From: Pirellulales bacterium
GTDB lineage: Bacteria; Planctomycetota; Planctomycetia; Pirellulales; PALSA-1355
Assembly: GCA_963733035.1 (NCBI GenBank)
Contig: CAVTBU010000005.1
Span: forward strand, 2,272,001 to 2,336,000
Direction: 5' to 3'
Length of the DNA stretch: 64,000 nt
The notes under the pieces were generated by a model that was not told the origin of the DNA, made no database searches, and saw nothing but the letters and a program-made list of their open reading frames with translations. Positions 31,616 through 49,654 of the stretch are shown here, piece after piece; position 1 is the first letter of the stretch; each line of letters opens with the position of its first letter. The translations under genes and the position numbers were made by a program.

Positions 31616-32507
31616 ATGCTCAGCGACGAGGTTCGCGCGCGAATCGCCCGGCTCAAAGCGCCCGATTCTCGCGCCCTCCCGGCACCGACGCGCCCACTCC
31701 TGCACGTGGTACCCACTACGCAGGTAATCGCGCCGCCGGATTTGGCATCTGCCGAGCTCTGTCAGAATAGCTCGGGCGAGCACCTGCGATTTCGCCAACC
31801 TCTCTCCGAGTTGTGGCCTGCGGCCGAGGAAATCACCTTACGCGCAACCCATACCCTACGGTCAGCGCCCCCTGCGACAGGTCATCCGGAACTAACCGCC
31901 GTCGCAGAACACTTTCCGACAGGCACGCTGTTTCTCGATTTGGAGACGTGTGGTTTCGCCGGCGCCGGTTTTTTTGGCGGGCGTCGTTTGGCACTCGGGC
32001 GACGCACTCGTTCTCGATCAGCTATTCGCCCGGCACTATGGCGAAGAGCGAGCGGTGCTGGAATCGCTCTGGTCGATTGCCGCCTCGCAGCACACCCTGG
32101 CAACTTTCAACGGCAAGAGCTTCGACTGGCCGATGGTGCGCGACCGCAGCACGCGGCATCGGTTGGGCCAGCGCAAGGTGCGTTCGATCAGCCGGCAAAT
32201 GCTCCGCGCCGACGGCGATCTGACGCACTGCGATCTGTTGCATCATGCCCGTCGACGTTGGAAGCGGGTCTTGCCAGACTGTAAACTGCAAACGCTCGAG
32301 CGCTACGTCTGTCGCCGCGTACGGCAGGACGATCTGCCCGGCGCCGAAGTGCCGTCCGCCTATCACCAGTTCGTCCGGACGGGAGCCAGCGGACCAATCC
32401 GTTCGATCCTGCACCACAACGCGCTCGACTTGCTTACACTCGTGCAGGTCACGTTGAAGCTGCTCGGCCTGCAGTGCCCGCCGGCAAACTTCTCCGCGGC
32501 GAGTTGA
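31616..32507 (+). CDS. YprB-like ribonuclease H-like domain protein (frameshift near 31965)
   Basis: FLDLETCG, TFNGKSFDWP, HCDLLH, KLQTLE, HNALD. Confidence 0.82.
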
Positions 32508-32574
32508 GATTGGTTTCGCATGGCTGGCATTGCCCCCCGTGCAAAGTTCACCAGCGCACAACGTCGGTGGCGAC

Positions 32575-32620
32575 AAAAAACATTGGCCACGGCCCGCCCG
32601 AAAGGACGTGGCCGTGGCCA
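32575..32620 (-). terminator. Intrinsic terminator on the minus strand
   Basis: TGGCCACGGCC...GGCCGTGGCCA stem followed on the minus strand by ATGTTTTTT. Confidence 0.6.
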
Positions 32621-32627
32621 GGTATAA

Positions 32628-32769
32628 TCAAACCTCTAGCCCAATGCGACGGAGGAGTCGCTGCGAGAAGAGCGGGGCCAGACTGTGCTAGGCACTAGCC
32701 TTTTGGTGGCCCAAGCTCACGCATTTAGTTAGGTCCTCCCGACGGTTTGAAGGCTATTCTGAGGTTTGA
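32628..32769 (-). ncRNA. Putative structured RNA (long irregular hairpin)
   Basis: Nested complementary segments TCAAACCTC/GAGGTTTGA, TAGCC/GGCTA, GGAGGA/TCCTCC, TGCG-GAGC-GGGCCA/TGGCCC-GCTC-CGCA; terminator follows. Confidence 0.45.
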
Positions 32770-33062
32770 AGTTTCCGAGAGAATCGTTTTTCGGGCGCAC
32801 CGAGCAAGTCATGGTCAGGACTTTACGGTGCCATGACATCGACGGCAGTCAGACTGCACAGTAGATCGGCAGTTTTGCGACGCCCCTTGGGCCGTTTTTG
32901 AAAAACGCCCCTGGTTGTTCGCTCGTGTGAAATTATAGCTCGACCGCTCACCGAATGAAGGCGAAAAGAAGGCCAACTGGGCGCGAATAAATAACTCTTT
33001 CACCCAGGCATGAGATTTGCCTAGGCGGAAATGGGGCAGGGGGCGAGCAAGGAGATAATGGC

Positions 33063-33257
33063 TCAGCGGGGGAAGGATCTCGCCATGTCGGCCGGTGCCG
33101 GGCCACATTCGGCCTGAAGTTGATCCTGCTCGCTCCACAGGAACGCATCCACGGCCTCTTCCAGCATCTCCAGCGTCTCGTAGGTGCCGCTCGTGATCAG
33201 ACGCTTCAGTTCAGCGATCTTCGCTTCTCGTGCGATCGCTTCGGAAGATCGGGTCAT
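33063..33257 (-). CDS. Small FlgM-like (anti-sigma-28 C-terminal motif) protein
   Basis: GGAGG RBS; KIAELKRLITSGTYET resembles the FlgM core. Confidence 0.55.
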   Translation of the reverse strand: MTRSSEAIAREAKIAELKRLITSGTYETLEMLEEAVDAFLWSEQDQLQAECGPAPADMARSFPR

Positions 33258-33418
33258 CTTTTACCCTCCGTCGTATGCAACCACCGCCTACTCGTTTACG
33301 CCCCGGATCGGTGCGTTGGTGGATTCCAAGTTGCCACCATGCTAGCACATCAAACCGGAAATAAAACATGCCCGGCCAAGTGGCCTTCAGGCCCACCGCG
33401 CCAGGGAGCAAAAACGAC

Positions 33419-33458
33419 AAAACCTGCCGCAAATCACGCTGTTTTTGCGGCAGGTTTT
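33419..33458. terminator. Hairpin downstream of the DUF1080 gene
   Basis: AAAACCTGCCGCAAA...TTTGCGGCAGGTTTT. Confidence 0.6.
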
Positions 33459-33545
33459 GAGGATTCCGGGTTGTGGATAAACTGTCGATTTCCGGCGTTC
33501 CCCGTTGGAAACGAACTCCCGACCCTCGACCGTCAAATCTTTCAG

Positions 33546-34532
33546 CTAAGATTTCTTTTCCACGACCCAGATGTTGCGATATTCCACTGGGTTGCCGTGG
33601 AACTGTAGCATCAGCGGGCCGCGTCCGGGCGATTCGTGCGGGGCTCCGCCGGGCGTCAGATGCGGTAGCTCGAAGTCGTCAAAAATAGTGACGCCGTTCT
33701 GCTTTACGGTCACACGCGCGTTCGAGGTTTTGTTCTCACCGTCGAACTTCGCACCCGTGAAGTCGAAATCATAGGTCTGCCAAGACAGGGGCGGCAGGCA
33801 CATGTTCACCGCCGGCTCCTTGATCTGATAGAAGCCGCCGCATTCGTTGTCCTTGCCTTCCAGTCCAAACGAATCGAGCACCTGGCACTCATAGCGGTTC
33901 TGTAGATAGACACCGCTGTTGCCTCGACCCTGCCCGCGCGCCGCCGGCATGTACGGCGTGCGGAATTCCAGGTGCAAGGTAAAGTCGCCGAACTCGTCCT
34001 TTGTGAGCGCACCAGCCTGCAGCAGGCCGTTCTTCACGCGGCTGACTTTCCAGGCATCGGCATTGCTACCGTCAAACAACACTTTCGCGCCCTCGGGCGG
34101 CGCGGCGCTCAGCGTCGGGCTCTTGCGTTCGACTTTTTGTAGCACTCCCATCTCTGCACCCGACAAATCCTGAATCGTCATCTTGCCGTCTTCAATGACG
34201 GCGGTGCCGGAGTCACCTTCGAACGTCACTTTGCCCTCTTCGCAGGTCGCATCCGCTTCCAGCTGCTGCATCCCGCGCTCCCAGCCGTCACCTGGCAATC
34301 CGCCGAAATAAAACACGCCATGAAACTTGTCGTCGCCCAGGGCAATTACCTGTGCGCCGAACTTGAGGGCCTCGTCTTGATCGGGTGCCTTGAGCTCGCC
34401 TTGATACTCGCCCTGAATGGCGAAGTCCGGACCTGCCTTGGCCGGATCGGTGATGGCCGGTCCCTCGGCCGCGAACCCGCGGCAAGCAAGCACCAACCCA
34501 AACAACGCCGCCAACATCAAACGCCTAAACAT
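33546..34532 (-). CDS. DUF1080 (3-keto-disaccharide hydrolase-like) secreted protein
   Basis: LFDGS, LHLEF, GNSGVY, YECQVLD, WQTYD, LQFHGNPVEYRNIW. Confidence 0.88.
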   Translation of the reverse strand: MFRRLMLAALFGLVLACRGFAAEGPAITDPAKAGPDFAIQGEYQGELKAPDQDEALKFGAQVIALGDDKFHGVFYFGGLPGDGWERGMQQLEADATCEEGKVTFEGDSGTAVIEDGKMTIQDLSGAEMGVLQKVERKSPTLSAAPPEGAKVLFDGSNADAWKVSRVKNGLLQAGALTKDEFGDFTLHLEFRTPYMPAARGQGRGNSGVYLQNRYECQVLDSFGLEGKDNECGGFYQIKEPAVNMCLPPLSWQTYDFDFTGAKFDGENKTSNARVTVKQNGVTIFDDFELPHLTPGGAPHESPGRGPLMLQFHGNPVEYRNIWVVEKKS

Positions 34533-34850
34533 GGCATCAATCTCCTGGATGACTCAGAGGAAGTAGTACTTCAGGTGCGAACCCAATTCCGAAGCCAGTA
34601 TTGTGACTGGCGCACAAACGCGTCGCAAGCGATTGGCATCGCGCCCGCCAATCCAGTTGATTTCCGCCACGCGATTTTCACGCGTGCGAGCAAGAAACGA
34701 ACGATGAAACGGCTGCCGCAATCACCCGTGCCGCGGAACACCGCGGCCGATCGCAACCGCCGCCACTTGGCTCGGGGTCCGTTGCGCGAAAAAAGCGGGC
34801 TCGGTTTCGCTTGCCGAACCCGCGTTCGAATCCGTTTTCAGTCGACCCGC

Positions 34851-36335
34851 TCACGCAAACAGCTGCGTCACGACTTCCGCCTTTACCAACTCGCGCGGTT
34901 GGTTCAAGTGGTTGTAAACGACCGTCAGCGGGTTGATGCCAACCGCGTGGTAGACCGACGCGAGTAGTTCGATCGGGTGCACCGGGTTTTCCAGCGGGGC
35001 CGAGGCGGTCGCATCCGACTTGCCGTACACAAATCCGCGCTTGGCGCCCCCGCCGGCCACGATGCCGGTATAGCAGTAGGGCCAGTGATCGCGACCGTCG
35101 TCGCTGTTCGAGTTGCCCGAGGTGCTCACGCCGCGCTGCGGGCTGCGGCCGAACTCGCCGATCACCACGACCAGCGTATCGTCGAGCATGCCCCGCTCGT
35201 CCAGATCGGCAATCAGCGTTGAAATGCCGGCGTCAAACATCGGTGCCGATTGCGTCTTCATGCGGGTCGACAGACCGCTGTGATGATCCCACGAGTGATT
35301 GTCGGAGTTGGCGACCTTGGGCCATACGACTTCGACCACGCGGGTGCCGGCCTCGATCAAGCGGCGGGCAAGCATCAGGCTCTGGCCGAACGTGTTGCGG
35401 CCATATCGGTCGCGGGTGGCGTCGCTTTCGGCCTTGAGGTTGAAGGCGTCGAGCGCGCGGCCGGAACTGATCAGCCCCAACGCCTGGCCGTAGTATTCGT
35501 CCAGATCGTATTTGGCCACGGCCTTGTCGACCGCCGGCATGCCTTCGCTGATCAGGTCGCGCAAGCGAGCGCGCCGCTCGAGCCGGGCGCTGGTGACTTC
35601 CGGGCGCAGGCTCAGGTCGTCGACCTTGATATGCTCCATCTTGTTCATATCCATATCGTCGCCGGTCGGATACAGATAGTAAGGATCGTACGCCCGGCCG
35701 AGGAACCCGGCGGTGCCGCCTTTGCCCACCACGTTGCTCTCTTGCAGCGGGCGGGGAAGCATCACGAACGGCAGCATCGGCACCGTGGGCGGCTTCAGGC
35801 GAATGATGTTCGAGCCGAACGTGGGGAAGTCCTTCGGCGACGGCGGCTCGAGCTGTCCCGACGGGCTCACTTTGTCGGTCGTATAGCCGGTATGAATCTG
35901 ATAGATGGCCGCCGTGTGATTGAACAGCCCGTTGGGCGTGTAGCTCACCGAGCGGATCATCGTGAACTTGTCGTTTACCTGCGCGAGCTTCGGCAGATTT
36001 TCAGTGAACTGCACGCCGGGGATTTTGGTTGGGATCGGCTTGAAGATGCTCTTCACATTGTCCGGCACGTTTTCTTTCGGATCCCACAAGTCGAGGTGAC
36101 TCGGTCCGCCTTGCAGGTAGACCATGATCACGCTCTTGGCCTTGTTCCACCCAGGGCCGCTGCCGCTGAACGCCTCGGGCGAATTGGTGGCGGCCTGCGC
36201 CTGCTTGAGTTGCAGGATGTCGGCCAGGCTGAGGCCGAGCAGCGAGGCACCCCCAACGCGCAAGATGTCGCGCCGCGTGGGCCCCATGCCCCGATCGCAA
36301 TTGTCCTTGGCAAGCTGTCCGGGGATCCTGAGCAT
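34851..36335 (-). CDS. DUF1501 domain protein with Tat signal
   Basis: [42 protein letters not shown]. Confidence 0.9.
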
Positions 36336-36871
36336 GCTCGCATACCTCCGGTAAACGGATGTTGGTGGGTTGTGCTGGGGGAAGGCAGGCAGAGCCCGAC
36401 CGCCGCATTGGCCAGCCAGACTCGACAGGGCATCCAGCCCAACTCTCGACAGGAATGCGAAGCGCGAAGCGCAGCCTCACCCCCGCCGGGAGCCGCCCGC
36501 AGTATAACGGCAGACTTTGATGGGTGTCAAATTTCAAGCGCGCCAGGCGGTTCCTCGGTGCCAGGACAACCACGATTCCGATCGTCCGACGGCCTTTGCG
36601 GCAACAAAGTGGCTCGGTTTCGATTTTCAAAGATTTCCGAGTGGCTCGATTTTCGAGCTGCACTTTTTGTGAAACTTTTCATTCCTAAGGGAGGCCGAAA
36701 AACCGAACAATTCACCTCCCCAAACCGTGCATTTGCCCTTGTTTGACCATCAAAAAAACCCCCGCAGACTCGGTCCATAATCTCTCGACCCTAAGCTAGG
36801 CGAAAGGCTGGCCCGATTGCTAGAGACAAACCCAGCTAAAGTCGCTGACGCGGGTGCGCGGCAGGAAGAAT

Positions 36872-36894
36872 GTAGGTCAGGCCCTGGCCTGACA
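36872..36894 (+). repeat. GTAG-family REP upstream of RAYT
   Basis: GTAGGTCAGGCCCTGGCCTGACA: GTAG foot plus hairpin. Confidence 0.85.
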
Positions 36895-36998
36895 GACGGT
36901 GATGGACCCGGACGTTCGACCCCGCTTAAAAACTCCGCGCCCGCCCGTGGCCTCACGCTCTGTTGTTGCGGCCGCAGCACGCGTCTAAAATTGCTCTC

Positions 36999-37550
36999 AT
37001 GTCCGAATACCGGCGGTACTTCGTGGCGGGCGGAACGTACTTTTTTACCGTCGTGACAGACGCCCGCGCGCCGCGATTCGACGACGCGCTTGCCCGGCGT
37101 CTGCTTGGCAGCGTACTTCGTCGTTGCGTTTTGCGGGCGCCGCTGCGAGTGCTGGCGATTGTCCTACTTCCAGACCACCTGCATTGCCTTTGGACCTTGC
37201 CGCCGGGCGATAGCGACTATTCCGCGCGATGGAACTGGATTAAGGGAGAGTTCACACGACAATGGCTGCAACTCGGCGGCCGAGAAAGCCCGCCAACTCA
37301 GGCGCGACGTTCCCAGCGTCGTCGTGGCGTTTGGCAGCGCCGCTTCTGGGAACACACGATCCGCGATGAGAATGACCTTGAGCGTCACGCCGACTATATT
37401 CACTACAATCCCGTCCGGCACGGTTTGGCCACGCGCCCGCGAGACTGGCCCTGGTCGAGTTTCCATCGTTGGGTGCGTCTAGGTCACTATCCGGCCGATT
37501 GGGGCCGCGACGGAACAGAAATCGAGTTGGGCTATGAAGGCGCCGAGTAG
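36999..37550 (+). mobile_element. rayT: REP-associated tyrosine transposase (RAYT, HUH/Y1)
   Basis: GGTYFFTVVT, LPDHLH, WQRRFWEHTIRDE, DYIHYNPV, DWPWSSF; flanked by REPs. Confidence 0.92.
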
Positions 37551-37566
37551 ACCAGACCGCGGCCCG

Positions 37567-37632
37567 GTCGGTCAGGCCCTGGCCTGACAGGCAAGCGTTG
37601 TCGGGCATCTGTCAGGCCAGGGCCTGACCTAC
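37567..37632. repeat. Inverted REP doublet (REPIN-like)
   Basis: 37567-37589 GTCGGTCAGGCCCTGGCCTGACA; 37610-37632 is the exact reverse complement of the upstream REP. Confidence 0.85.
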
Positions 37633-37657
37633 AAGTCTTTCGAAAGCGAGGATTGAG

Positions 37658-38173
37658 ATGACTGTTCGAAGCCGAATCACACCGAGCGTCTTCACGAAAT
37701 CCGTGGTCACGAAAATCATGGTCGTCGTCGTGCTCTTCGCGCTGCTGGCCGTGCCGGCACTGGCGCCCGCGGCCAGGCCGGACGCTGCGTCGTCGTCCCC
37801 CTTTCCGCATACGGTGAAATTCGAGCCGGGGGAAACGCGCTTCGACAATGGCGATGTGATCACGATCGACGAAGTCGACGGTACCGCGGCTACGTTTACG
37901 CCGGGCAATATCTACTGGATCAAGGGAACGTACACGCTCGCCTCGCGCGACGAGGCCACGCTGGCTGCTTACGTCACGGCGGCGGATTCCCAAGACGCGC
38001 GCAGCTACTCGTTTGACGTCCAGACGCGCGATTGCAAGCGGGGGAGCGGCAAGTTCACGCTGCTGCTGCCGATGTCCTACCGCGGCTGGCCGCACGTGAG
38101 TTTCTACCCCGCCGCCGGCGGCCAAAGTTTTGGCGGCACCTATTTCGGAACCGGCGACTCCGTGCGGAAGTGA
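37658..38173 (+). CDS. Secreted hypothetical beta-rich protein
   Basis: GAGGA RBS, signal peptide, GWPHVSFYP...YFGTG. Confidence 0.65.
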   Translation: MTVRSRITPSVFTKSVVTKIMVVVVLFALLAVPALAPAARPDAASSSPFPHTVKFEPGETRFDNGDVITIDEVDGTAATFTPGNIYWIKGTYTLASRDEATLAAYVTAADSQDARSYSFDVQTRDCKRGSGKFTLLLPMSYRGWPHVSFYPAAGGQSFGGTYFGTGDSVRK

Positions 38174-38241
38174 TGGTGAGGGACTGCGCTGGAGAAAGAC
38201 CAACTGCGACACGACTGTTCCGAAAGTGCCGGAACAGGATG

Positions 38242-38272
38242 GCGTCCCGTTTAAGTCCCCCTTAATTCCCCT
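38242..38272 (-). repeat. TAAAGGGGACGC-family repeat variant with stutter
   Basis: Minus strand reads AGGGGAATTAAGGGGGACTTAAACGGGACGC. Confidence 0.5.
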
Positions 38273-38399
38273 ATTTGGCAGGCGAATTGCTTTTTGCTAG
38301 ATTCGCGCTGCTTTGCGGTGGCCGCCAGCGCATTGTTGACCCTCTACGACTTTCGGCACGTGGTGCCGAGCGGCTTGTTTATAAGGTGCTGAAATCGCC

Positions 38400-39035
38400 A
38401 TGCAGCGTGCCTTGTCGCGGTTTATTGAGCATGCCCGGGAGCGCGGGTTGGATCATGTAACGATCTTTTTGCTGCTGAAGTCGGTGGGCTGGAAGGAGCG
38501 GGAGATTTCTGGGGCGATTGCCGAGCGGGAGCTGGCGATGCCGATTCCCGAGCGGGCGGGGGTTGGCTCGCCTCGCGACGCCTTCTTTCACTTGCTGGCG
38601 TTCACCGCGCTGTATGCCTGGGCCATCAGCTTGATCTACGTCTGCTTTACGTACATCAACTTTACGTTTCCCGATCCGGCCAAGCCGACGCCGACGTATG
38701 TAGTCGAATCCGTGCTGTCGAGCGTTCGCGTGGCGCTGGCCGCGCTGTTGGTCGCCTACCCTTTGTTTCTCGGGACCTGGTGGTTCCTGCTTGGCGAAGT
38801 GCGGAAGTATCCCGACAAGTCAAAGAGTCCTCTACGCCGCTGGCTCACATCGCTGACGCTGTTCGTTGCCGCGAACGTGATCCTGGGGGACGCGATCACG
38901 GTGGTTTACTATTTCGTCGAGGGAGACCTGACGGTTCGGTTTCTGCTCAAGGTGTTGGTCCTGTTCGTCGCGACGGGGGCCCTGTTCATTTATCTCGCAC
39001 TGACGCTGCGGGGCGAGGCGGAGGCTGGCAAATGA
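38400..39035 (+). CDS. DUF5671-like membrane protein
   Basis: SPRDAFFHLLAF, FPDP, RRWLTSLTLF, GDLTVRFLLKV; four TM helices. Confidence 0.7.
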   Translation: MQRALSRFIEHARERGLDHVTIFLLLKSVGWKEREISGAIAERELAMPIPERAGVGSPRDAFFHLLAFTALYAWAISLIYVCFTYINFTFPDPAKPTPTYVVESVLSSVRVALAALLVAYPLFLGTWWFLLGEVRKYPDKSKSPLRRWLTSLTLFVAANVILGDAITVVYYFVEGDLTVRFLLKVLVLFVATGALFIYLALTLRGEAEAGK

Positions 39036-39471
39036 CCGGACGTTTGCACGTGGTCTTTGGTGTCCTTTCGGCATGCACGGTGATGCTGGCCATCGGATTG
39101 GGCTTTTCGCTGGTCGGATCGCCGACGACCCGCCGCGCGGAGCGGTTCGACGAAGAGCGTTTGCGGGATCTGCAGGTGATCGTTCGCGAAGTTCACAACC
39201 TGGTCGTCGAGCCGGGACCGCCGCCCACGCTCAGGGGACCGCTGCCTAAAACGCTGGACGAGATCGCCGAAAAGGCGCGGCTGGAAAAGATTGTCACCCA
39301 CGATCCCGAAACGGGCGAAGCGTACCGCTACGTCGTCAAGGACGGAACGACTTTCGAACTGTGCGCCGCTTCACGCATGCCCGCAAGTCCACCGACAGCG
39401 TGTACTGGAATCACCCCGCCGGCCAGCACTGCTACACGGTCAAAGTGCTCGACCCACCACCGTTCTACTGA
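39032..39471 (+). CDS. Membrane-anchored partner of the DUF5671-like protein (frameshift near 39366)
   Basis: TM helix, GSP..RR..RFDEERLRDL, DPETGEAYRY, FELCA; WNHPAGQHCY continues in another frame. Confidence 0.65.
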
Positions 39472-39488
39472 CGGAAATTCGATCGCTA

Positions 39489-39564
39489 GGGGAGTAAAAT
39501 AAAGGGGAATCAGCAGGGGAGTTGCAAAGGGGGACGCGATTTGCATCCCCTTAAATTACTCCCC
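39489..39564. repeat. TAAAGGGGACGC-family hairpin with stuttered GGGGA units
   Basis: GGGGAGTAA...AAAGGGGGACGC-GATTT-GCATCCCCTTAAATTACTCCCC. Confidence 0.65.
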
Positions 39565-39625
39565 AGAGAATGGTGGTTGGGGATGGCGTGCTGATTGTGA
39601 ACGACAATTTGCCATGGGCCGAGTC

Positions 39626-40960
39626 ATGCCTGTCACATTAGATTCCTTGGTTCGATTTGTCTGCAGCGCTGCGGTGATTTTCTTGCTAGGGTCACTTGAA
39701 AGATGCGACGCACAAATGGAGCGTGCCGGCTCCGCAGCACAGGCTTCCAAGGGAGCGGCGAAACTTGCGGCGTCCGATCTACTGACCGATGACCAGATCC
39801 GGCCGCCCAGAGTGTTTCGTTCGGCGAGGCGAAGTGGATGGTCCGTCTCGAGTTGCCCTCCTTCGACAATGGTATACGACTTCCGGGTCGTCCAGAGCGG
39901 TTCGCCATTACCAACGGTTTCATCCACACTCCGTTCAAGACCGCATCATAAACCGGCACCTGGACGATGGCACGTATGGCCCCACAGCACGTCGGCGAGG
40001 CGGCATTATCGATCAGGTCGCATGTTCTCAGGCAGGCATTGCAGTGACATCTCGACCACCGACCGTGGCGAGTTGCCGGATGCCGGACGCTTCATCGTCA
40101 TGAAAAATTGGGCAGGCGACGGCATCCGCGAACTCAAAGGGCACGCCTGCATGCCGTGGCGCGTCTGGGCGTCACCGACGGCACGCGGGTTGCCTCCTGC
40201 GCCGATGACAAGACGATGCGTCTCTGGGATGCTGACAGCGGGCGCGAATTGGCCGCATTCCCGGGGTATGGATACGGCGGAAACTTAAGCACGCGGCGGG
40301 GTGAGTTCGTCTCGTTTTCGCCGGACGGCAAGTGGCTGGCGACAGCCTTTGAGCATCGCATATCGCTTCGCCGCCCGTCCGATGGAAAGGAGGTAGCGGT
40401 TTGGAACTTGGACCAGCAACTGGAGATGTTCGAGATTCTCCAAGGCATCCGCTTCTCTGCAGACAGCCAGTCCTTGCTCGCATTCCGTCCGATGACGTTT
40501 CAGCCGCACGACCGCCAGAAATTCTTTTGTGGAGCATCCACTCTGCGAAGCAAACCGTCTTCATCGGCGACCACGACGCGATTGATGGCCGACTTAGCGA
40601 GGACGGGGAGAACGTCTTTACTTGGAATAGCTCACCGGCGATTACTCTTTGGGCGTGCGCAGCAAGAACGTAGTGCGCACAGTCAACGTAGCTCCGAAGC
40701 ACCTGTGGGCCATCGCGTTTTCCAAAACGGCGAATATGATTGCGGCCGCGGGTGACGACGGTGAAGTGCGATTTTGGAACTTCACGACCTTCGAGAAGTG
40801 CAATCCGAAGCGATGCTACAAGCACAAGGGCATCCAAACCGTCCAGTTTAGTGAAGACGGCACGTATCTTGTGACGGCTGCCGCCGATGGCTCCCTCGCT
40901 GTGTGGGACAGCTTTCCCACGATTAGATGTGCCCGTTCCACGAACCTTTCAATTACCCAC
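39626..40960 (+). pseudogene. WD40-repeat protein with multiple frameshifts (boundaries approximate)
   Basis: LKGH, ASCADDKTMRLWD, FSPDGKWLA, AGDDGEVRFWN, DGSLAVWD spread over several frames. Confidence 0.6.
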
Positions 40961-41314
40961 AAGTTCCTGTACCGCCGTTTTGCGGTACAGGCTAATCTTG
41001 TAGCAGCGGAGCTTTGTTTTCAATTCGTCAATTCGCTGAAGGTAAGGGGTGGTCAGGTCAATCCAGCCGATTTTTAAGCTCGCGCAGTTTGCTCACGTGT
41101 TTGATCAACGGGAGGGCCTCGTAGACGGCCTTGCGATTCCGAAGCGTTACGCTGGCAACACGGCCACCGAGTCCGACGACACGCCCGTATTCCTTCGCGG
41201 CGGCGGTGGCTTTTTCACGCTTGCGTTCAACCATCACTGCAAGTGCGCCGCAGGCAATCAATAGACCCGTGGCGATAATCGCAGCTTTTCACCAGATGCT
41301 TGAGGCCTAGACAT
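40948..41314 (-). pseudogene. Small membrane-anchored hypothetical protein, frameshifted
   Basis: TM-like AAIIATGLLIACGALAVMV, then LRELK(I)GWIDL...; needs two frame corrections. Confidence 0.3.
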
Positions 41315-41323
41315 GGGAGTCAC

Positions 41324-41420
41324 TAAAGGGGATGCGAAGACGCGAACCTTTTCGTGCACGACTCCGGGCCATGGTTTACGCGATAAGACTGCGGCGTCCG
41401 CACGCTGTTCCGCCAAAGCA
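41324..41420 (+). repeat. Composite repeat plus start of IS-derived remnant
   Basis: TAAAGGGGATGCGAAGACGCGAACCTTTTCGTGCACGA...TGCGGCGTCCGCA; aligns with 42985 and 46328. Confidence 0.65.
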
Positions 41421-41833
41421 TTTCAAAGAACAGCGCGTGTTAGCGGGGATTCATACAGTCATCTTGGATCACGCGCCGGCAATTACCGGCGTGTGATTGG
41501 TGCCGTCGGAAAAATTTCCGGATTTCTTGTCAGGAACCTGCGCACGGCGGTCCAAAGATTCATGACAGGTGGTGTCTCAGTATTCGGTATTAGGCTACAA
41601 ACTAAATCCAAAATCGCCCGCGGCCGGGGCAGTTTGCTTCAACAAGTTCGGTGCACGCGGGCAGTCCGCCCAACGCCACCAACGATAACGGGTACACGGC
41701 CGACGGCGGCGGTTTCGAGACGCCCAGCGGCCTGCCGAGAAAATTTGACCGCCGGCGCTTATTTGTGCTACCCTCATCCCAACATTTAGGCAGCGCCAAT
41801 GAGTCAACCTAACAATGAGCGTTTGTTGGCAAC

Positions 41834-41881
41834 ATGCTGTGATCTGTAGGCCTCGTGCCTGCGGATCGTAGCATTTTTTTT
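41834..41881 (+). terminator. Intrinsic terminator inside the leader of the PEP-CTERM gene
   Basis: 18-bp stem including 4 G-U pairs (plus-strand specific), 5-nt loop, T8. Confidence 0.7.
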
Positions 41882-41955
41882 GCGGCAGAGAGCTGGCTGG
41901 CCGCGGTGGGGTCATTACGCGGAAATGTACCACACAACTGTTGAGGGAAACGCCG

Positions 41956-42987
41956 ATGAGACTTAGCAAACGACGAGCGGGCATGGCAGTGATCGCGATC
42001 ATTGGATGTGTGGTGACGCTGCCCGCACCGCCGGCCCGGGCGCTGACGATCACCGTGAACTACGAGGGGACCGTTCCGGCGGCCGCGAAGACCGCCTTTA
42101 ATACGGTCAAGTCGCTTTACGAGCATACGTTCGTCAACCCGATCGATGTCAAAATCGACGTTCGCTTCGGCACGGTAGCCCTGGGCGCGACGAGCAGCAA
42201 CTTCATCTCCATGTCGTACGCGGATTGGAAGACCGACATGAGCAACACGTCGGCCCTGTATCCGTTGAACACCTATCTGAACACCGCCAAGGGGACGCTG
42301 CCCGCGAACGATCCGATCGGCCTCGGCACCGGCAATGGAGTTGTGTATGTCCGGGCGGCCAATGCCAAGGCCATCGGCGTGACGGCAGGCCAGACGACTG
42401 GCACGTTTCCCAACTCCATCAACGGCGCCTATGACGCGGTGCTCACATTCACGGACGCGGCCAACACGTTCGAATACAACGGCGTGGGAGTCGCCGACAA
42501 ATACGATTTCATGGACGCTGCCTCGCACGAGCTCAACGAAGCGCTGGGCAGCGGATCGCAGTTGACTAATATCGCCAACAATGCGGTGCTGGGGGCCAAC
42601 ACGGCATTTGAACCGGAAGATTACTTCCGCTATGACGCCTCCGGCAGCCGCTCGATCACGACCGATCCGAACGCAGCCGTCTATTTCACTTACGATCCGT
42701 CGCTGGCGGTTTATCTCGACCGGTTCAATCAAGATAACAACAAGGGGGACCGTAACGACTGGATCTGGGGGAATTTTGGAGTGCCGGCGTCAACCATCGA
42801 AGTGCAAAGCGCGGTCATGTGGCAAAACCAAATCGCCCCCTTGCTCAGTCCCAGCCCGGCCACGCCCGAGTTCGTCGTGCTGAGCACGCTGGGCTACTCG
42901 GTCCCCGAGCCCTCGACCTACGCACTGGCATTCTGCGGCCTCGCCTCTCTCGCGCTGGCTCGACGGTGGACGAGAGGGAGGAACTAA
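41956..42987 (+). CDS. PEP-CTERM-anchored putative metalloprotease (NF038122-like)
   Basis: Signal peptide; ANAKAIG, YDF..AASHELNEALG, DYFRY; VPEPSTYAL + TM + RR. Confidence 0.8.
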   Translation: MRLSKRRAGMAVIAIIGCVVTLPAPPARALTITVNYEGTVPAAAKTAFNTVKSLYEHTFVNPIDVKIDVRFGTVALGATSSNFISMSYADWKTDMSNTSALYPLNTYLNTAKGTLPANDPIGLGTGNGVVYVRAANAKAIGVTAGQTTGTFPNSINGAYDAVLTFTDAANTFEYNGVGVADKYDFMDAASHELNEALGSGSQLTNIANNAVLGANTAFEPEDYFRYDASGSRSITTDPNAAVYFTYDPSLAVYLDRFNQDNNKGDRNDWIWGNFGVPASTIEVQSAVMWQNQIAPLLSPSPATPEFVVLSTLGYSVPEPSTYALAFCGLASLALARRWTRGRN

Positions 42988-43218
42988 AGGGTACGAGAAG
43001 ACGCAAACCTTGACGTTGGTGACTCGACTCTGAGGCCAATCATTGCTTCGCACGCCAGGAGTGCGGTTTCCGCACCCTGATCGCGGCCAAGCAGGGCCGT
43101 CCGACGGACAAGCCCGCGCGGCACCGATATCGACGGCTGATGCTGCCGAAATCTCCGCTTGATGGCGCTGACGCGTAACGTCATGATCCTGTTGCGCGGG
43201 GAGATTTTCTACTGAGCC
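42985..43218 (+). mobile_element. Composite repeat plus decayed IS 3' remnant with terminal IR
   Basis: Shares GGAGTGCGG, CCGACGGACAAGCCCGCGCG and ATCTCCGCTTGATGGCGCT with 46340-46646; ends TTTTCTACTGAGCC. Confidence 0.65.
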
Positions 43219-43246
43219 GCCCGTAAGCTATTTTCGACTGTGTGCC

Positions 43247-44041
43247 ATGCGCAAGCTTTTTCATCGAAGACGTCGCCCGTTGCTGTGCGCTTCCGTCGGC
43301 AGACGGACAATTTGCGAAATCAACCAAGCCCCCCACAAGGAATGGCCAATTGTTGAGTTTTCACAATTGAGCCCCGTGCTTCAACTTCTGGACGCGGACG
43401 GTAAAGCATACTGCCACGACCTGACGTCCATTGTGCAAGAGGGCATACGATGGGGCTATTTTTCGATCACAATCGGCAAAGGATTGACCTGCCAGGCCGA
43501 CGCAATATTGATGAAAAAGGAAGGTGACGCGCCAGAAGCATTCGCGGCGGGCAGGGCGGACGGTTTGAGGCTGCAACCGTTCTATCTACCAGGCTGTCAC
43601 AGCCGGCCTTCTGAGCTAGTTGGACGTGGCCTGTTTTTTCGCGGACTTCACTATAGCGGCACGGTTACACCCGGAAATGTCTCGCTGTCCTGTATTTGCG
43701 ATGTGTGCGACGCAGCTTTCGGGTGCAATCGTTCCACACAGGCTTCAGTGGATCGTCATATTTTTATTGCAGCAACGGACCGCATACGCTTGAGGTCAGC
43801 GCGACACACCGAGGGTGCTCCGCCCGCCTCAGGCAAGGCGGATCCTGAGAGCTTGGCCGCGCTTGAGACACGGTTACCTGCCTGCTCCCATTGCGGAGGC
43901 ACCTTCGCATATCTCAACTCTTTTCGTTGTCCGCATTGCGCCGCACCATACATCGACTTCGGGAGATTCCCATCCGAGCGGGAAATCGAGTACTACGGCA
44001 ACTACCTATACGGAGAGGAGTTGCAAAGATTCAGGCCGTAG
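43247..44041 (+). CDS. Hypothetical Cys-rich (CxxC) protein; probably internal frameshifts, start uncertain
   Basis: CICDVC, CSHCGG, CPHC motifs. Confidence 0.5.
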   Translation: MRKLFHRRRRPLLCASVGRRTICEINQAPHKEWPIVEFSQLSPVLQLLDADGKAYCHDLTSIVQEGIRWGYFSITIGKGLTCQADAILMKKEGDAPEAFAAGRADGLRLQPFYLPGCHSRPSELVGRGLFFRGLHYSGTVTPGNVSLSCICDVCDAAFGCNRSTQASVDRHIFIAATDRIRLRSARHTEGAPPASGKADPESLAALETRLPACSHCGGTFAYLNSFRCPHCAAPYIDFGRFPSEREIEYYGNYLYGEELQRFRP

Positions 44042-44049
44042 TGAGCGAT

Positions 44050-44092
44050 TAAAGGAGGGCTAACCTAAAGGGGACGCAATTCTCGTCCTCTT
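44050..44092. repeat. TAAAGGGGACGC-family hairpin
   Basis: TAAAGGAGGGCTAACC-TAAAGGGGACGCAATTCTCGTCCTCTT between convergent genes. Confidence 0.65.
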
Positions 44093-45396
44093 CAATCCGC
44101 AGGTGCAGAAGCGGGCGTTTTCGTGGAGAGTTCCGTAAACCACTTGAGGGCTTTGGGGACGGCTTGCAGCACGGAGGCATTGTGCGCGTAGGGGCCGACG
44201 GAGATCGCCTGCACGTCGGCTCCGCGCTGCTGCATTTCGGCCGCGGCGCGCTGGGCTTCCTCGGGCAATACGTCCTCGTCTTCTTCGCCGTAATAGATGC
44301 GGACCGGGACCTGCGGGGTCCAATCGGCGACGCTGTTCGCGGCGAGCGCGTCGAGAAACCAGTGCGGTTGACCCTTGTCGTACGCTTCGAGCAGTTCCGG
44401 CGTGAACAGCTCGCGTGGATTCTTGGGAAGCGCCGCCGCGATGCGTTCGGTCTGATGAGCGCCGTCGAACAGGGTGGGAACCTCTTTGGCATAGGGCTCG
44501 ACCAAGATCGAATCGAGCGGATGACCGTACGCCTGGGCATAGGCATTGGCCAGGTACGCCAGGTAGAACGCGTGCGAAGGGCTACGGCCGGTCAGCGCTT
44601 GTGGAAAACTCACGTCGCGCAGGTAGAACGGTCCGGCAATCGGCGCGGAGGCGACGACGTACAGATCCGGATCGGCATTCTGCTGGAGCGCCCGTTGCAC
44701 GGCGAACGTGGCATGGCCCCCTTGCGAGAAGCCGAGCAAGAACAATGATTTCGGCCAGGGCCGCTGCAAGTGCGTGACCAGTTTCTGGGCGGCGCGCATT
44801 AAGTCGATCGACGTGGAAGCGGTGACGCCGGCGAGCATGTAGGGGTGACGATCTTGGCTTTCTCCGAGGCCGATGTAGTCGGGTGCAACAAGCAGGTGTC
44901 CCGTACCGGCGACGGCGGCGGCCAACACCAGTCCTTCGCCTGCCCCCGATTGAGAAGGGGCCGTCCGCCGTTCGGCATTGGTGCCGTGAAAGTACGCCAG
45001 GACGTCATGCGGCGCGCTGTCATTTGGAAGTGCCACCAGCCCGGAGGCCGCGACCGGCAAACCGTCGATGCCTGTCGTTTGATAGCGCAGGCGGTAGAGC
45101 GTGATCCCGTGTTGCACGGCGATCGGCTCGGGCAGGTCGACGGTATCGAGCAGATACTGCGTTGCGAAGCGCGGATACTTCCCGATCCGCGAGACCGATA
45201 CCAGGTCGCCCGGCTCGTCTCCGCGCAGCGATTCGGGAACCGAGACGGCGAAGGTGCCGACCGCCCGATGCATGGCGATGCCACCTGCCAGCGAGAGCGT
45301 GGCAAGGATCGCAAATACGACCAGCGCAAAGCGTCGCCATCGGCTCGCCTTAGGACGCACCGTTGGATCGGGCAGAGACGTGGGTTGGTCGGTCAT
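44092..45396 (-). CDS. Membrane-anchored secretory lipase-like alpha/beta hydrolase
   Basis: HGT, APDYIGLG, GFSQGG nucleophile, D and H triad candidates. Confidence 0.82.
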   Translation of the reverse strand: MTDQPTSLPDPTVRPKASRWRRFALVVFAILATLSLAGGIAMHRAVGTFAVSVPESLRGDEPGDLVSVSRIGKYPRFATQYLLDTVDLPEPIAVQHGITLYRLRYQTTGIDGLPVAASGLVALPNDSAPHDVLAYFHGTNAERRTAPSQSGAGEGLVLAAAVAGTGHLLVAPDYIGLGESQDRHPYMLAGVTASTSIDLMRAAQKLVTHLQRPWPKSLFLLGFSQGGHATFAVQRALQQNADPDLYVVASAPIAGPFYLRDVSFPQALTGRSPSHAFYLAYLANAYAQAYGHPLDSILVEPYAKEVPTLFDGAHQTERIAAALPKNPRELFTPELLEAYDKGQPHWFLDALAANSVADWTPQVPVRIYYGEEDEDVLPEEAQRAAAEMQQRGADVQAISVGPYAHNASVLQAVPKALKWFTELSTKTPASAPAD

Positions 45397-45421
45397 GGCG
45401 TTGGCTCCACGAGGTACACGA

Positions 45422-45460
45422 GAGGTATCTAAAGGGGGAGGTATCTAAAGGGGACGCAAA
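45422..45460 (+). repeat. TAAAGGGGACGC repeat with exact 16-nt tandem duplication
   Basis: GAGGTATCTAAAGGGG x2, then ACGCAAA. Confidence 0.75.
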
Positions 45461-45628
45461 GGCTCTGAAGAAAACTGCTCTGCTGTCTTAAGCTGCTAGC
45501 TCGGTTGGGTGCGTAGTGGGTTTGTGGCGCGCACCAGCAAATCTCCGAAGGCGGTGGCGCGGGCGGCGCTTGTGGCCGCTCAGCGGGTACTGCCGTTCTA
45601 CACGCATCCCAACAGCCCAAAGAAGAAG

Positions 45629-45830
45629 AAAAGGTGCCAGGAACCTATTTCTGGCTTTCTGGGGGTCAGACCAACGCGGGCGCGCCACGATGGCTCGCCC
45701 AGGGGGCTGCCGCGCTGCACACTGCGGCGAATCGCTTCCAACTCCGCGTCGCTTTGCGGGGCGTTGACCCAAGCGGTCCGGCCACGCCGTCGCGGCAGCG
45801 GGCAGACCGCCAGCAACGACTTGTCCTCGG
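45629..45830 (-). pseudogene. C-terminal remnant of a second Y1/RAYT-type transposase with adjacent hairpin
   Basis: WVNAPQSDAELEAIRRSVQRGSPLG; ends at AAAAGGTGCCAGGAACCTATTT. Confidence 0.55.
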
Positions 45831-45863
45831 GCGATCCCCGCCCAGCAGTATGACCATTTTGCT

Positions 45864-46211
45864 TTACGTGGGCGCACCACTGTCCGTCTGCCTTGGAGGA
45901 TGTAAGGGCAGCTTTGTCTGTGGAATATCCCTGTCAAGCCAGTGGCGCAGCTTGGCATAGAATTCGCCCGAGGTTTCACCGTCTCCTCGTTTGCAAGCTC
46001 CGAACGATTTGCATCGACGTTTGATTTCGGCGGCTCCTTCGGGAGTTCGTTCCAATTTGGCAACAAAGTCGAGCAATTGGGTCAGCTTGTCCTCGATAAG
46101 TTCGCTATCGAGCAGCTTCTCTTGCGGACTTTTATATTGGAAGGTCTTCTCGTGGCCTGCACGATTTGCCCTTCGGCTGCGGTCCACATTCGTTCTCCGT
46201 TGGTATTCCAA
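45864..46211 (-). CDS. Hypothetical 115-aa protein, lower GC than the flanks
   Basis: AGGA RBS before a TTG start; open frame nested within the IS remnant. Confidence 0.45.
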   Translation of the reverse strand: MEYQRRTNVDRSRRANRAGHEKTFQYKSPQEKLLDSELIEDKLTQLLDFVAKLERTPEGAAEIKRRCKSFGACKRGDGETSGEFYAKLRHWLDRDIPQTKLPLHPPRQTDSGAPT

Positions 46212-46647
46212 ATTCCTGCTGATGACATCATAGCAGTTTATGCGCCGTCAAAGTTTGCTTCGTGAACTCGAGTCCCAGCTTTGTTGGTGCTGGGAGCGGT
46301 TTGTACTGCGGCAGTCATTAGAGGCGTACGCGAACCTTTTTCGTGCATGATTCGGGGGCCATTGCTTCGCGCGCAGGAGTGCGGCGTCCGCAGGCTGGTC
46401 GCGACCACGTATTGTCGCCCGACGGACAAGCCCGCGCGAGAACACCATCGGCAGATGCAAACGCGTATCACGAAAGGAAGTACCACCGCCGCGGCCAAGT
46501 GCAAACGGCGAACTCAACGATCAAACGCCACCAAGGCGATTACGCCCCGAGCCGAACCGTCCAAGCCCAATGCCGAGATCTCCGCTTGATGGCGCTAAAG
46601 CACCAGGCCATGATTCTGTTGCGCGTGAACGTTTTCTAACTGAGCCC

Positions 46648-46723
46648 GACGCGAACCTTTGTCTCCCACTTGAAAAGGTTTGCGTCAGTTGCGTCCCCTT
46701 TATTTAATCCCTTTATTTAATCC
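46648..46723. repeat. Inverted GACGCRAACCTTT pair plus TAAAGGGGACGC copy with 13-nt duplication
   Basis: GACGCGAACCTTT...AAAGGTTTGCGTC-AGTTGCGTCCC then CTTTATTTAATCC x2. Confidence 0.75.
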
Positions 46724-47546
46724 GACGCCGCTGCCGAAGCGTGGTGACCACCATGGCCAGCACGGCGGCTTGTGCCAACAGCCAGCCGCTGGCGGGCTCC
46801 GGTACCAGAAACGGGTCGAGAGAAAAGTTGTCGACGGCGTGGGCCCCGTTGCCCGTAACAACAAAGCCGGGATACAGCGAGGCGTCGGCCGCGAAGCCTT
46901 GCGTGTCGGGCGTTTGCGTTACGTGCTTGAAAACTGTGCCGAGGAAGTTCAAACCATCCAGGCCGTAATCGTCGATCCGGACACCGTATTGGATCTGTCC
47001 GCCGAGATTCGTGAAGGCGACTTGAAAATCGTACCAGTGATCGGCACGGATCGTTCCCTTGGTGAAGTTGAACGTAAAGCCCGGAAACGAACCTCCGCCG
47101 GCTTGGAGCGTTCCGCCTTCGATCCGATCGACGCTCGAAGTTGATTCGAGCGAGACAAACAGATGCGCGTCGTAGTTGCCGAACTCGCTCGCCGTATGCA
47201 CCAGATAGGTTTCGTGATAGGTGCCGAAGAAGCCGGGCATCAGTCCCGACAAGTCCCCCGCGTGAAAGAACTGCGAGATGTAGATCGTATCGCCGGGATG
47301 ATTGAACGCCCGCGAGGAAGTCAGCGTGCTTGCGTGCGCCGTGCTCGTCACAAGCGATCCCGAGGGACCGATGCCGTAGCCCGGGCTCCAGGCAATCGGC
47401 GAGTACGAGCCATAATTCTGCCGCGAAAAGTAGAACAAGTCGGTCGAGCTGTTGTAGTCGATCGTCGTTGCCTGGCAGGTTCGCCCGGCAGCCACAAAAA
47501 GTGGGATCACCGTCGTCGCGGCAACCAATACCGACAGTGCACGCAT
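46713..47546 (-). CDS. PEP-CTERM sorting domain protein
   Basis: GAGGA RBS, signal peptide, VPEPASGWLL + TM + RQRRR. Confidence 0.8.
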   Translation of the reverse strand: MRALSVLVAATTVIPLFVAAGRTCQATTIDYNSSTDLFYFSRQNYGSYSPIAWSPGYGIGPSGSLVTSTAHASTLTSSRAFNHPGDTIYISQFFHAGDLSGLMPGFFGTYHETYLVHTASEFGNYDAHLFVSLESTSSVDRIEGGTLQAGGGSFPGFTFNFTKGTIRADHWYDFQVAFTNLGGQIQYGVRIDDYGLDGLNFLGTVFKHVTQTPDTQGFAADASLYPGFVVTGNGAHAVDNFSLDPFLVPEPASGWLLAQAAVLAMVVTTLRQRRRIK

Positions 47547-47876
47547 GCGAAGTCCTCGACCGTTCGGATGAGTTGGCTCCCCGTACCCCGAGACGACATC
47601 CGCCACGCGACCAGCTTCTCACTACTTCGGGGTATATATAATGCCCCACATTATTGATGAGCGCTCGAAAAACGTCAAACAGATTCGACTTGCTCGCACG
47701 GAAATAGCTAGTTCTAAACTGCACATTAACGCGCTCCCGCTCGTGATCGTGGCGGCTGTGGAAAAGGGCGGCCGGTTCCAGCCACCTTCCATCGGTCGGG
47801 TGCTTTCGCCGCGGCGGCCCAAGCGGTTCAATGTTGGAAACGACCGCAGCCGCTGGACCGTGGGAGGACGCCCGAG

Positions 47877-48131
47877 ATGGACGAAATCAAGCGCATGCAA
47901 CACGGACTGCGCATGCTCGAAGCGCTCCGCGAATTGTTGCAGAGTGGCGACTTGAGCGCCGAGGAGTGCGATCGCGCCGAGCGGATTATCGAGTTCGACG
48001 AAAGCCTTCGGGCCCCCGGTGCCGGCGACGAGAAGATTCTGGGCGTCAGCATGAACTTGTTGAGCAACGCGCACTTCGACCTGATCGAAGCCTTCCTAGC
48101 AGAACACGGCGTGACCGTTCCCGCGGAATGA
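47877..48131 (+). CDS. Small acidic hypothetical protein
   Basis: GGAGG RBS, 84-aa helical-looking ORF. Confidence 0.6.
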   Translation: MDEIKRMQHGLRMLEALRELLQSGDLSAEECDRAERIIEFDESLRAPGAGDEKILGVSMNLLSNAHFDLIEAFLAEHGVTVPAE

Positions 48132-48218
48132 CCGCCACCGGCCGCCACACATTAACCCGAAGCCCGCGCTCGCGCGTCGGGTTAGTAGACGGCGGTCCAA
48201 CGACCGCGTTCGCCCGCT

Positions 48219-49654
48219 CTACGCAATCAGCTCTTTCACCACGCGGCCGTGGACGTCGGTGAGGCGGAAGTCGCGGCCGGCGTAGCGGTAGGTGAACTTC
48301 TCGTGGTCGAAGCCCATCAGGTGCAGGATCGTGGCGTGCAGGTCGTGCATGTGGACGCGGTTTTCGACGGCGGCGAAGCCGAACTCGTCGGTCGCGCCGT
48401 GCACGTAGCCGCCGCGGACGCCGCCGCCGGCCATCCACATCGTGTAACCGTGATGGTTGTGGTCGCGGCCGTTGATCTTGCCGGCATTCGCTCCCTTCTT
48501 CGGCAGCTCGACCGTCGGCGTGCGGCCAAACTCCCCGCCCCAGATGACCAGCGTTTCGTCGAGCAGCCCGCGGGCTTTGAGGTCTTTGAGCAGCGCGCCG
48601 ATGGCTTGGTCGCACTGCTGGGCCAGGCGGCGGTGATTCACTTCGATGTCGTCGTGGCTGTCCCAGGGTTGTCCTTGCCCGTGCCAGACCTGGACGAATC
48701 GCACGCCGCGCTCGACCAGCCGGCGGGCAATCAGGATCTGCCGCGCTTGCGTTCCTTCGCCATACATGTCGAGGATGTGCTGCGGTTCGCGGCTGACGTC
48801 AAACGCGTCGGTCGCTTCGCTCTGCATGCGGTAAGCCAGCTCGAACGACTGGATCCGCGATTCGAGCTGTTCATCGCCGCGGCGATCTTCCAGGTGCAGC
48901 GCGTTAAGCTGGCCGAGCAAGTCGAGCTGGCGGCGCTGCTGCTCGCGGCCGATGGCCTTGTTCTCGATGTTCTCGATCAGCCGGGCGATTTCCTGGTGCT
49001 TGGTGTCGATGTAGGTGCCCTGGAAGACGCCCGGAAGGAAGCCTGACTGCCAGTTCTGCGACTCTTGAATCGGATAGCCGCCGGGGCACATCGAGATGAA
49101 GCCGGGCAGGTTCTGGTTGTCGGTGCCCAGGCCATAGGTGAGCCAGCTCCCCATGCTGGGGCGGATTTGCCGCGGCTCGCCGCAGTTGGTGAGCAGCAGT
49201 TGCATCTCGTGGCTGGGCGCGTCGCCGTACATCGAACGGATCACGGCGATGTCGTCAATGCACGCGGCCGTGTGCGGGAAGATCTCGCTGACCTCGATCC
49301 CGCTTTCGCCGTACTTCTGGAACTTGTACGGAGAGGCGAAGGCCGCGCCGGTTTTGCGCTCGGTCTTGAGGTTGAACGGCAACTCCTGGCCGCTGCGTTT
49401 GGTGAGCTCGGGCTTGGGATCGAACGTGTCGACGTGCGAGGGTCCGCCGTTCATGAACAGGTGAATGATGTGCTTGGCCTTGGCCGGAAACTGCGGCATC
49501 CTGGCGCGAGCGGCCGGATCGAATCGGCCGCCGCCGGCGCGAGCAAGCCCTGGCCGCCCAGCAACTGGCCGAGTGCCAGCGAGCCGAAGCCGAGCCCGGT
49601 TCGACGGAGCAAGTCGCGGCGCGTCAGGCTGCAGGAGTGGTCGCTGGCGGTCAT
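48219..49654 (-). CDS. DUF1501 domain protein (frameshift near 49505)
   Basis: TRRDLL Tat signal in the upstream frame; GGPSHVDTFDPK, WDSH, GEFGRTP, GRDH. Confidence 0.9.

Follow-up and report, generated by a model that had tools for sequence, protein, structure and literature searches.

What assembled a run of unrelated genes that are separated by one short recurring motif, and does an enzyme act on that motif? The question is raised by an array in the window, the whole 64,000-nucleotide stretch of a Pirellulales genome that was analysed (G000:C5:2272001-2336000; G000 is the source genome, 6.65 Mb in 10 contigs). The array lies beside an intact gene for a RAYT, a transposase associated with repetitive extragenic palindromes (REPs), and a reading made from the sequence alone (hereafter the sequence-only reading) had proposed an integron-like platform for gene capture or shuffling, driven by a Y1 transposase. 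Judging from the genes and remnants that adjoin it, the motif is almost certainly the terminal inverted repeat (TIR) of a Y1/HUH transposase element of subclass 2.1 (TIRYT, or TIRtron). Coordinates are window positions unless a contig is named, and G, L and C followed by a number denote genomes, loci and contigs, respectively.

All seven motif sites listed in the sequence-only reading were present, with the T of TAAAGGGG at 38253(-), 39526(+), 41324(+), 42985(+), 44066(+), 45446(+) and 46702(-); the positions 38242 and 46691 given earlier are the low ends of the two minus-strand 12-mers. Four additional partial copies were recognized: one at 39500(+), a degenerate one at 46319(+), and two minus arms, 39554 and 44095. 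Two pairs, 39526/39554 and 44066/44095, form head-to-head dimers. The consensus from 35 genome copies reads (G)GAGTAA(C/T)TAAAGGGGACGC(A/G)A(A)CCTTTT. The earlier remark that the motif had not been noticed elsewhere in the window nearly held, the exception being one match at 60469 (≤ 2 mismatches), while two further matches with ≤ 2 mismatches fall inside genes. With a weight matrix started from 22 copies, 30 sites in the genome scored ≥ 20 vs. one in the reversed genome. After merging of dimers, 29 of 34 genome sites lay no more than 5 kb from another (in 10,000 random simulations, the mean was 1.7 and the maximum 10), so the clustering that was to be checked is real. The sites fall into seven clusters of 2–7 sites plus five singles, and the array is therefore one of several alike (C3, C5 three more times, C6, and C7).

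Single ends form a weak dyad, AAAGG-N9-CCTTT, with an asymmetric 9-nt spacer (single-copy folding z 0.17 to -1.8). A role as a terminator was considered and rejected (20 sites vs. 14.3 ± 4.2 in shuffles, only the 44066 dimer scoring). The motif has no GTAG foot, and the combination that marks a REPtron, a GT[AG]G foot with a stable hairpin next to a RAYT, was not found at it; as had been noted earlier, it is distinct from the GTAG REP beside the intact RAYT.

The identity of the repeat follows from what adjoins it. Nine matches to PF01797 were found in G000, and an intact gene on C6 (G000:C6:840986-841678) starts 60 bp inside a motif copy at C6:841738, which bears out the earlier expectation that the motif is a site of a Y1 transposase. 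The encoded protein (231 aa; NHWH, YQGRF, YVERNP) exceeds the PF01797 cut-off, and other motif copies bear 5′ or 3′ remnants of the same type of gene. Whole elements have spread recently and in multiple copies in relatives: G007 has three complete motif-gene-motif elements of ~ 800 bp each, two of which were compared and are 97.5% identical with unrelated flanks, no target duplication being seen around these elements, and G044 has one complete element together with several transposase-less dimers. The motif pattern was found in 12 of 32 family genomes (2 control hits), and close TIRYT homologues in 25 of 32 family and 43 of 150 class genomes. A quick tree of 53 protein rows placed all four transposases classed with this end type in one 7-row clade (support 95%), whose remaining rows had GGGGACGG or no end detected, and the RAYT was a long outlier; the TIRYT proteins of relatives score under the cut-off of the RAYT model. 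A metagenome scan with the full motif returned six short loci, three having TIRYT 5′ parts and none an array.

TIRtrons and their TIRYTs (PMC3733652, 2013, Di Nocera, De Gregorio, and Rocco) correspond to TnpA-Y1 subclass 2.1 (PMC6006769, Quentin et al. 2018) and to RAYT Group 1, which ranks with the groups that most resemble insertion sequences (IS) (Bertels et al. 2017, 10.1101/119735). According to the available parts of these sources, TIRYTs are flanked by inverted repeats with a GGGGWSAS-type core in most, not all, TIRs (PMC3733652; PMC6006769), have NHxH, W[EQ]/FQ-type and Y-x-E-x-NP motifs in ~ 240 aa, carry a C-terminal extension resembling a helix-turn-helix (HTH), given for 20 examples in subclass 2.1, and make up the second largest Y1 group, in 14.9% of species (PMC6006769). 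The system described here resembles them in having a Y1 HUH gene that encodes subclass 2.1 motifs and lies between inverted repeats, in its G-run end, and in the dispersal of the repeats as singles, dimers, and clusters. It differs in the end, GGGGACGY as against GGGGWSAS (GGGGACGC matches the published core at 7 of 8 positions; sister elements have GGGGACAT or GGGGTCAG), and may differ in the tail, as a ~ 100-aa C-terminal extension is present but HTH profiles of Pfam, the only ones used, matched none of four TIRYT proteins. By its sequence, the repeat can be accounted for as the end of an element of a known kind, and this end type may be among the TIR sequences already published in 2013 and 2018. 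Cutting and joining of its TIR by the TIRYT is the likely, predicted function.

How the copies behave was seen by comparing ~ 380 bp on each side of 35 copies (595 pairs). The inner side was shared in 20 pairs (19 copies; two of the 20 pairs come from IS ends) and the outer side in none, and shared identity halts at (G)GAG, 7–10 nt ahead of TAAAGGGG; each motif is therefore an element end joined to new DNA. The inner DNA is varied, comprising transposase 5′ remnants, 3′ remnants, IS5 ends or fragments, and a 250-bp spacer with a repeat designated X, and a further class combines a secreted-protein gene, a REP pair and X, this last being found in the window and also, in decayed form, as many as three times on C7. 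The three C7 copies of TIR plus secreted-protein gene share one junction, and a TIR-IS5 junction recurs in direct orientation at 41324, 42985, and 46319. On C7, moreover, a 784-bp unit is repeated between direct motif copies. Perfect outer duplications of at least 9 nt occur in 4 of 35 copies (control 0.2%), and outer ends often have tandem self-duplications of 12–17 bp (45430, 46715; L065, with up to about eight, L078, L092, L035), which are a clue to possible cut positions.

The ends are themselves insertion targets. Of 12 IS5-like ends in G000, counted after one spurious BLAST row was left out, 7 sit right inside a TIR, at the border of the 9-nt spacer, and the junction sites recorded were 45461, 46646, G000 C3:13246, 14260, and 16093, C5:1450803, C7:380787, L092:4992, and L080. 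This IS5-like family enters TIRYT ends of several types, with like junctions in G066 and G076; such insertions likely left the 8–9-nt GACGC doublets behind as footprints. IS elements that target repeats are on record for REPs (PMC1525189) and, in the IS1202 family, for pdif sites (PMC10132070), as far as the accessible text of these papers goes; the likeness is insertion at a fixed place in another element's site, and the difference is that the site here is the 9-nt spacer of TIRYT ends and the inserted element is IS5-like.

The array sits in an island of about 36536–48200, at which synteny with relatives breaks. Its features are as follows.

36536..36860, minus strand: repeat X (~ 220-bp nearly indel-free core plus ~ 85 bp), left edge of the island; 27 genome copies; similarity to congeners (n = 3) stops at ~ 36535
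36872..36895, plus strand: GTAG REP 5′ of the RAYT gene; 7-bp hairpin, z -3.25
36999..37550, plus strand: intact RAYT gene, subclass 2.2 type (DHLH, WE, YIHYNP; NF047646 193.7 bits)
37567..37632, no strand: inverted GTAG REP pair 3′ of the RAYT gene, by sequence pattern
37658..38173, plus strand: gene for a likely secreted protein; three decayed C7 copies, with the motif joined at the 3′ end of each
38230..38275, minus strand: TIR copy with its outer edge rightward; spacer resembles right ends at C5:2527818 and 2532236
38400..39471, plus strand: DUF5671 gene and partner (partner frameshifted); stop 18 bp ahead of the next TIR
39489..39565, no strand: partial outer copy and head-to-head TIR dimer, resembling a MITE, a miniature transposable element with inverted repeats; z -3.57
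39614..41077, plus strand: WD40 gene by profile match, frameshifted in the assembly
41315..41410, plus strand: TIR joined to a fragment from within IS5, unit 1 of 3, by sequence comparison
41941..42987, plus strand: NF038122 metalloprotease gene with PEP-CTERM tail; stop codon supplied by the TIR
42976..43218, plus strand: TIR and IS5 3′ fragment up to the IS5 right end, unit 2 of 3; junction identical to unit 1
43247..44041, plus strand: Cys-rich open reading frame (ORF), no family at cut-off
44050..44104, no strand: degenerate TIR dimer where two convergent genes meet; the lipase stop comes from it
44092..45396, minus strand: secretory-lipase family gene by profile match; its G002 homologue has no adjoining TIR
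45421..45625, plus strand: TIR with 16-bp outer duplication and an IS5-like end after the 9-nt spacer; IS5 part 165 bp, 97.6% to C2:7068
45628..45819, minus strand: 3′ remnant of a different TIRYT gene, by similarity, with its own end type AAAAGGTGCCAGGAACC
45864..46211, minus strand: small ORF, no family found
46310..46725, no strand: degenerate TIR(+), IS5 3′ fragment (unit 3 of 3), IS5 right end, TIR inner half, and TIR(-) with 13-bp outer duplication
46713..47606, minus strand: second PEP-CTERM-like gene (VPEP, hydrophobic stretch, and RRR by eye); stop supplied by the outer TIR duplicate

The profile searches agreed with the earlier gene calls for the RAYT (NF047646 over cut-off), the NF038122 protease, DUF5671, WD40, and the secretory lipase; the second PEP-CTERM gene had no Pfam match and was recognized by eye only. 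Both PEP-CTERM genes do take their TAA from a motif unit, as had been stated (42985–87 and 46713–15), and with the lipase TGA (44092–94), which falls in the minus arm of a dimer, three genes in all stop inside the motif. At three places in the WD40 gene, a relative's contig has one letter more, so the frameshifts in this gene and in the second gene of the DUF5671 pair may be assembly errors. None of seven proteins matched PHROGs, the GC profile has no sharp island signal, and Rfam gave only chance miRNA matches on the REP pair.

The island is lineage-specific as far as the genomes compared indicate. In 12 flank loci from seven relatives, no array gene and no motif copy was found beside either flank gene, which upholds the lineage-specific reading; the sole motif-like hits among these loci lie 12 kb off, in G004. 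On the left flank, a homologue of window 22.2–23.1 kb lies past the flank-gene promoter in six of eight loci (of the other two, one contig was too short and one locus not syntenic), and similarity ends at the promoter -35 box near 36535. The relatives are too distant, and breakpoints therefore cannot be placed on motifs. As a separate observation, the block 30831–36535 has been inverted or moved in comparison with six relatives, and one of its breakpoints is at the island.

How the genes came to lie between the copies is less certain, and we lean, by a modest measure, towards an account in which a TIRYT repeatedly joined its ends to new DNA in this island and stacked passengers between copies that later decayed. 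The enzyme would cut at the outer (G)GAG boundary and would have made the joints, its ends being joined near existing copies; passengers would enter or be trapped between directly oriented copies, as in IS26 pseudo-compound arrays, later deletion would leave single ends and dimers, and the stop codons inside the repeat would be surviving insertions that spared the gene. This account is favoured because same-type elements ≤ 10 kb apart, with other DNA between them, were directly oriented in all eight clusters compared, which come from six other genomes, like IS26 arrays, and because the array holds three direct TIR-IS5 units with the same junction and C7 three same-junction copies. The clusters, chosen by distance and not by orientation, were G189 C2 (four copies, ~ 6.3 kb), G189 C4, G066, G151, G053, G114, G007 C24, and G007 C25; the G189 element has six more near-full copies at 96–98% identity. 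On G007 C25 (L159, positions 1277–3616), a TIRYT 3′ half and right end are followed by 1.6 kb of other DNA and then by a left end and 5′ half, which looks like a circularly permuted element-plus-passenger, or like two decayed tandem copies.

The IS26 transposase is of the DDE type. Arrays of that element consist of unrelated gene clusters interspersed with directly oriented element copies (PMC7885326, accessible part). The likeness, drawn from sequence comparison, lies in direct copies of one element among unrelated genes, and no target duplication was seen around copies here; the difference is that IS26 has 14-bp TIRs and 8-bp duplications whereas the enzyme here is HUH/Y1, and that orientation on G000 C7 is mixed. 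More tentatively, and with some doubt, TIRYTs might do the job of IS26 by HUH single-tyrosine chemistry, fusing DNA beside a resident copy, with the 220-bp repeat X as a favoured landing zone and the IS5-like element as a parasite of the ends. If stacking by TIRYTs is true, a widespread transposase class would be a builder of islands of surface and secreted genes. In the locus and its relatives, the enzyme and the end are defined, and both the cut edge and the product, direct tandems with passengers, are predicted. If TIRYTs do not move genes, the array is ordinary mobile-element debris in an island. A gene-stacking role appears plausible, and the available parts of the TIRtron papers mention neither stacks of elements and passengers in tandem nor a difference between the inner and outer sides, duplicated outer ends, or an IS5 inserted in the end; gene capture by TIRYT-like enzymes was not found in the literature searched, in which few subscription papers were covered.

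Several results weigh against stacking by a TIRYT. No TIR was seen beside homologues of the array genes in three family loci and eight distant loci (0/3 and 0/8), among them the DUF5671-pair homologues in G014 and G009 and the lipase homologue in G002. Phylum searches of 301 genomes each gave the secreted protein in three other genomes, DUF5671 in four, and the protease in none, and none of these had a TIR beside it. The G000 C6 element, with the sole intact cognate gene found, has a left end only, its right end missing. The window TIR lies ~ 31 nt farther from the secreted-protein gene than in the C7 copies, left ends on C7 face both ways within 4 kb, and a cross-type pair on C6 is inverted. 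Among 271 BLAST hits within G000, none was a duplicated segment bounded by motifs on both sides, and a 2-kb, 98%-identical duplicate (C5:2646517 / 1083019) that had seemed linked to a TIR does not have its ends at a motif. Other IS or repeats make up much of the DNA between G189 copies, and a strand bias of insertion, which is known for further Y1 enzymes according to the literature accessible in part, could be an alternative cause of aligned neighbours; congeners of G189 and G151 showed no empty site or breakpoint for the tandem arrays. No TIRYT experiment or activity was found in the literature covered, again with few subscription papers.

Close relatives point the same way. Contigs from sequencing runs were compared at 85%; three runs matched with a small share, and no RNA run was among those listed. 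A relative of ~ 96% identity is collinear over the motifs at 38253 and 39500–39554 (contigs 37822–39362 and 39336–40070), and none of the 15 joints listed (of 36) lies at a motif; gain or loss of units exactly at the motif, for which the sequence-only reading had suggested looking, was not seen in the run contigs of close relatives. Two patterns were not used as evidence: run X1 had almost no cover at 43078–44145 and 45748–47883, with neighbours covered and no contig joining across, and in run X3 single pieces end at 46323 and begin at 46714.

A possible account, less probable than stacking by a TIRYT, is that the array is a passive graveyard, in which the motif is still a TIRYT end but the genes came otherwise, with TIRtrons, MITEs, IS5, and the REPtron piled up where they were tolerated and deletions leaving single ends. 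It gains from the co-clustering of three TIR types, IS5, other IS, and REPs, from the TIR-free homologues elsewhere, from the gene order kept over two motif sites in the close relative, and from the fact that no passenger is both bounded by two ends and duplicated. It is set back by the direct orientation of all eight same-type clusters, by the three same-junction units within one array, and by DNA other than transposase sequence that has been copied along with an end, on C7 and at X-linked copies.

The integron-like platform, with a TIRYT acting in trans as a site-specific recombinase on single motifs and moving gene-plus-site cassettes, is improbable. Integrons consist of an IntI recombinase, an attI site, and attC sites. 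The array resembles them in its one- or two-gene units separated by a repeated site, in the three genes that end inside it, in the shared direction of six neighbouring copies, in the repeated 784-bp C7 unit, and in a site that is a short dyad with an asymmetric 9-nt spacer. It differs in that the site acts as an element end, copied with its inner side and away from the gene whose stop it gives, in that mixed orientation and dimers are present, so that a single site direction is not found, in that neither a fixed insertion site nor an enzyme adjoins the array, and in that whole elements spread as units in relatives. IntI was not found over cut-off (TIGR02249 best 81 bits vs. 265, in a genome that is 92% complete and with control genomes also below cut-off), PF00589 had no hit near the window, and the simple attC pattern RYYYAAC...GTTRRRY had no match in 36401–48300. 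The absence of outer-side sharing in 595 pairs is a weak test for travel with the upstream gene, because the genes are mostly unique. With no IntI or attC, mixed orientation, a motif copied with its inner side, and no passenger duplicated, the proposed platform was not demonstrated.

That the array was built by the neighbouring RAYT through action on the motif is very improbable: although its gene is intact and adjacent, REP pairs also occur in the C7 cluster, and E. coli TnpA-REP cleaves at a distance and has been proposed to sequester flanking genes (PMC3333891, accessible part), the same source gives GTAG as required for cleavage, the motif has neither a GTAG foot nor stable single-copy folds, it flanks TIRYT genes, and most clusters have no REP of the family of the window RAYT. 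Positions 36872–37632 are an ordinary REPtron with its own GTAG REPs, the RAYT being 23–27% identical to the TIRYTs, and its REP is not the motif that separates the array genes; the suggestion that the RAYT drove the array is not borne out, the motif flanking TIRYT genes instead. The Y1 remnant noted near 45.6–45.8 kb is real (42–43% identity to the C-terminal part of two TIRYTs, no match to the RAYT). At 45664–45819 it matches TIRYTs only, and next to it comes a third end type, which is also seen flanking the gene at C5:2503709. It was not the responsible enzyme that had been suspected, as the remnant has its own AAAAGGTGCCAGGAACC end and the motif belongs to a third Y1 gene, that on C6. Neither the RAYT nor the remnant enzyme owns the motif, because each has its own, different end or REP type.

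Repeat X consists of three or four direct AATCGGGCCA boxes plus A/T tracts and occurs in 3 of 33 family genomes (27 copies in G000; pattern hits, 13 in G001 and 8 in G007). The motif is on the 5′ side of X, on the same strand, in 10 of 27 G000 copies vs. 2 on the 3′ side; other TIR and REP types likewise favour the 5′ side, as does a TIR at five G007 copies. X as an obligatory TIR partner was rejected, 0 of 13 G001 copies having the TIR pattern within ~ 3 kb, and no partner gene of X was found. Two further candidates were set aside: an IS91 origin (no Y2 gene, PF04986, in G000 or G007, control genomes likewise without a hit) and an IS481 end (no X match in 10 loci around IS481-like genes). The 10-mer AATCGGGCCA also occurs within the TIRYT coding sequence (N-R-A codons), possibly by chance. 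In G151, a 320-bp repeat (L093:2580-2920), of which G151 and G120 have many copies, is found 3 kb away from a TIRtron tandem and does not match X.

Minor observations concern other genes and clusters. The small ORF region at 41015–41312 has two diverged copies, at C8:213396 and 214281, with no family found. At L039 (G009 C150), the DUF5671 pair adjoins a gene whose G000 homologue lies in another motif cluster (C5:2526391-2527460), and PEP-CTERM-like genes are nearby at both places. Finally, C5:2502494-2504432 holds a complete element of the third end type, followed by a passenger gene (thioredoxin-like CxxC, by eye) and then a further copy of the end.

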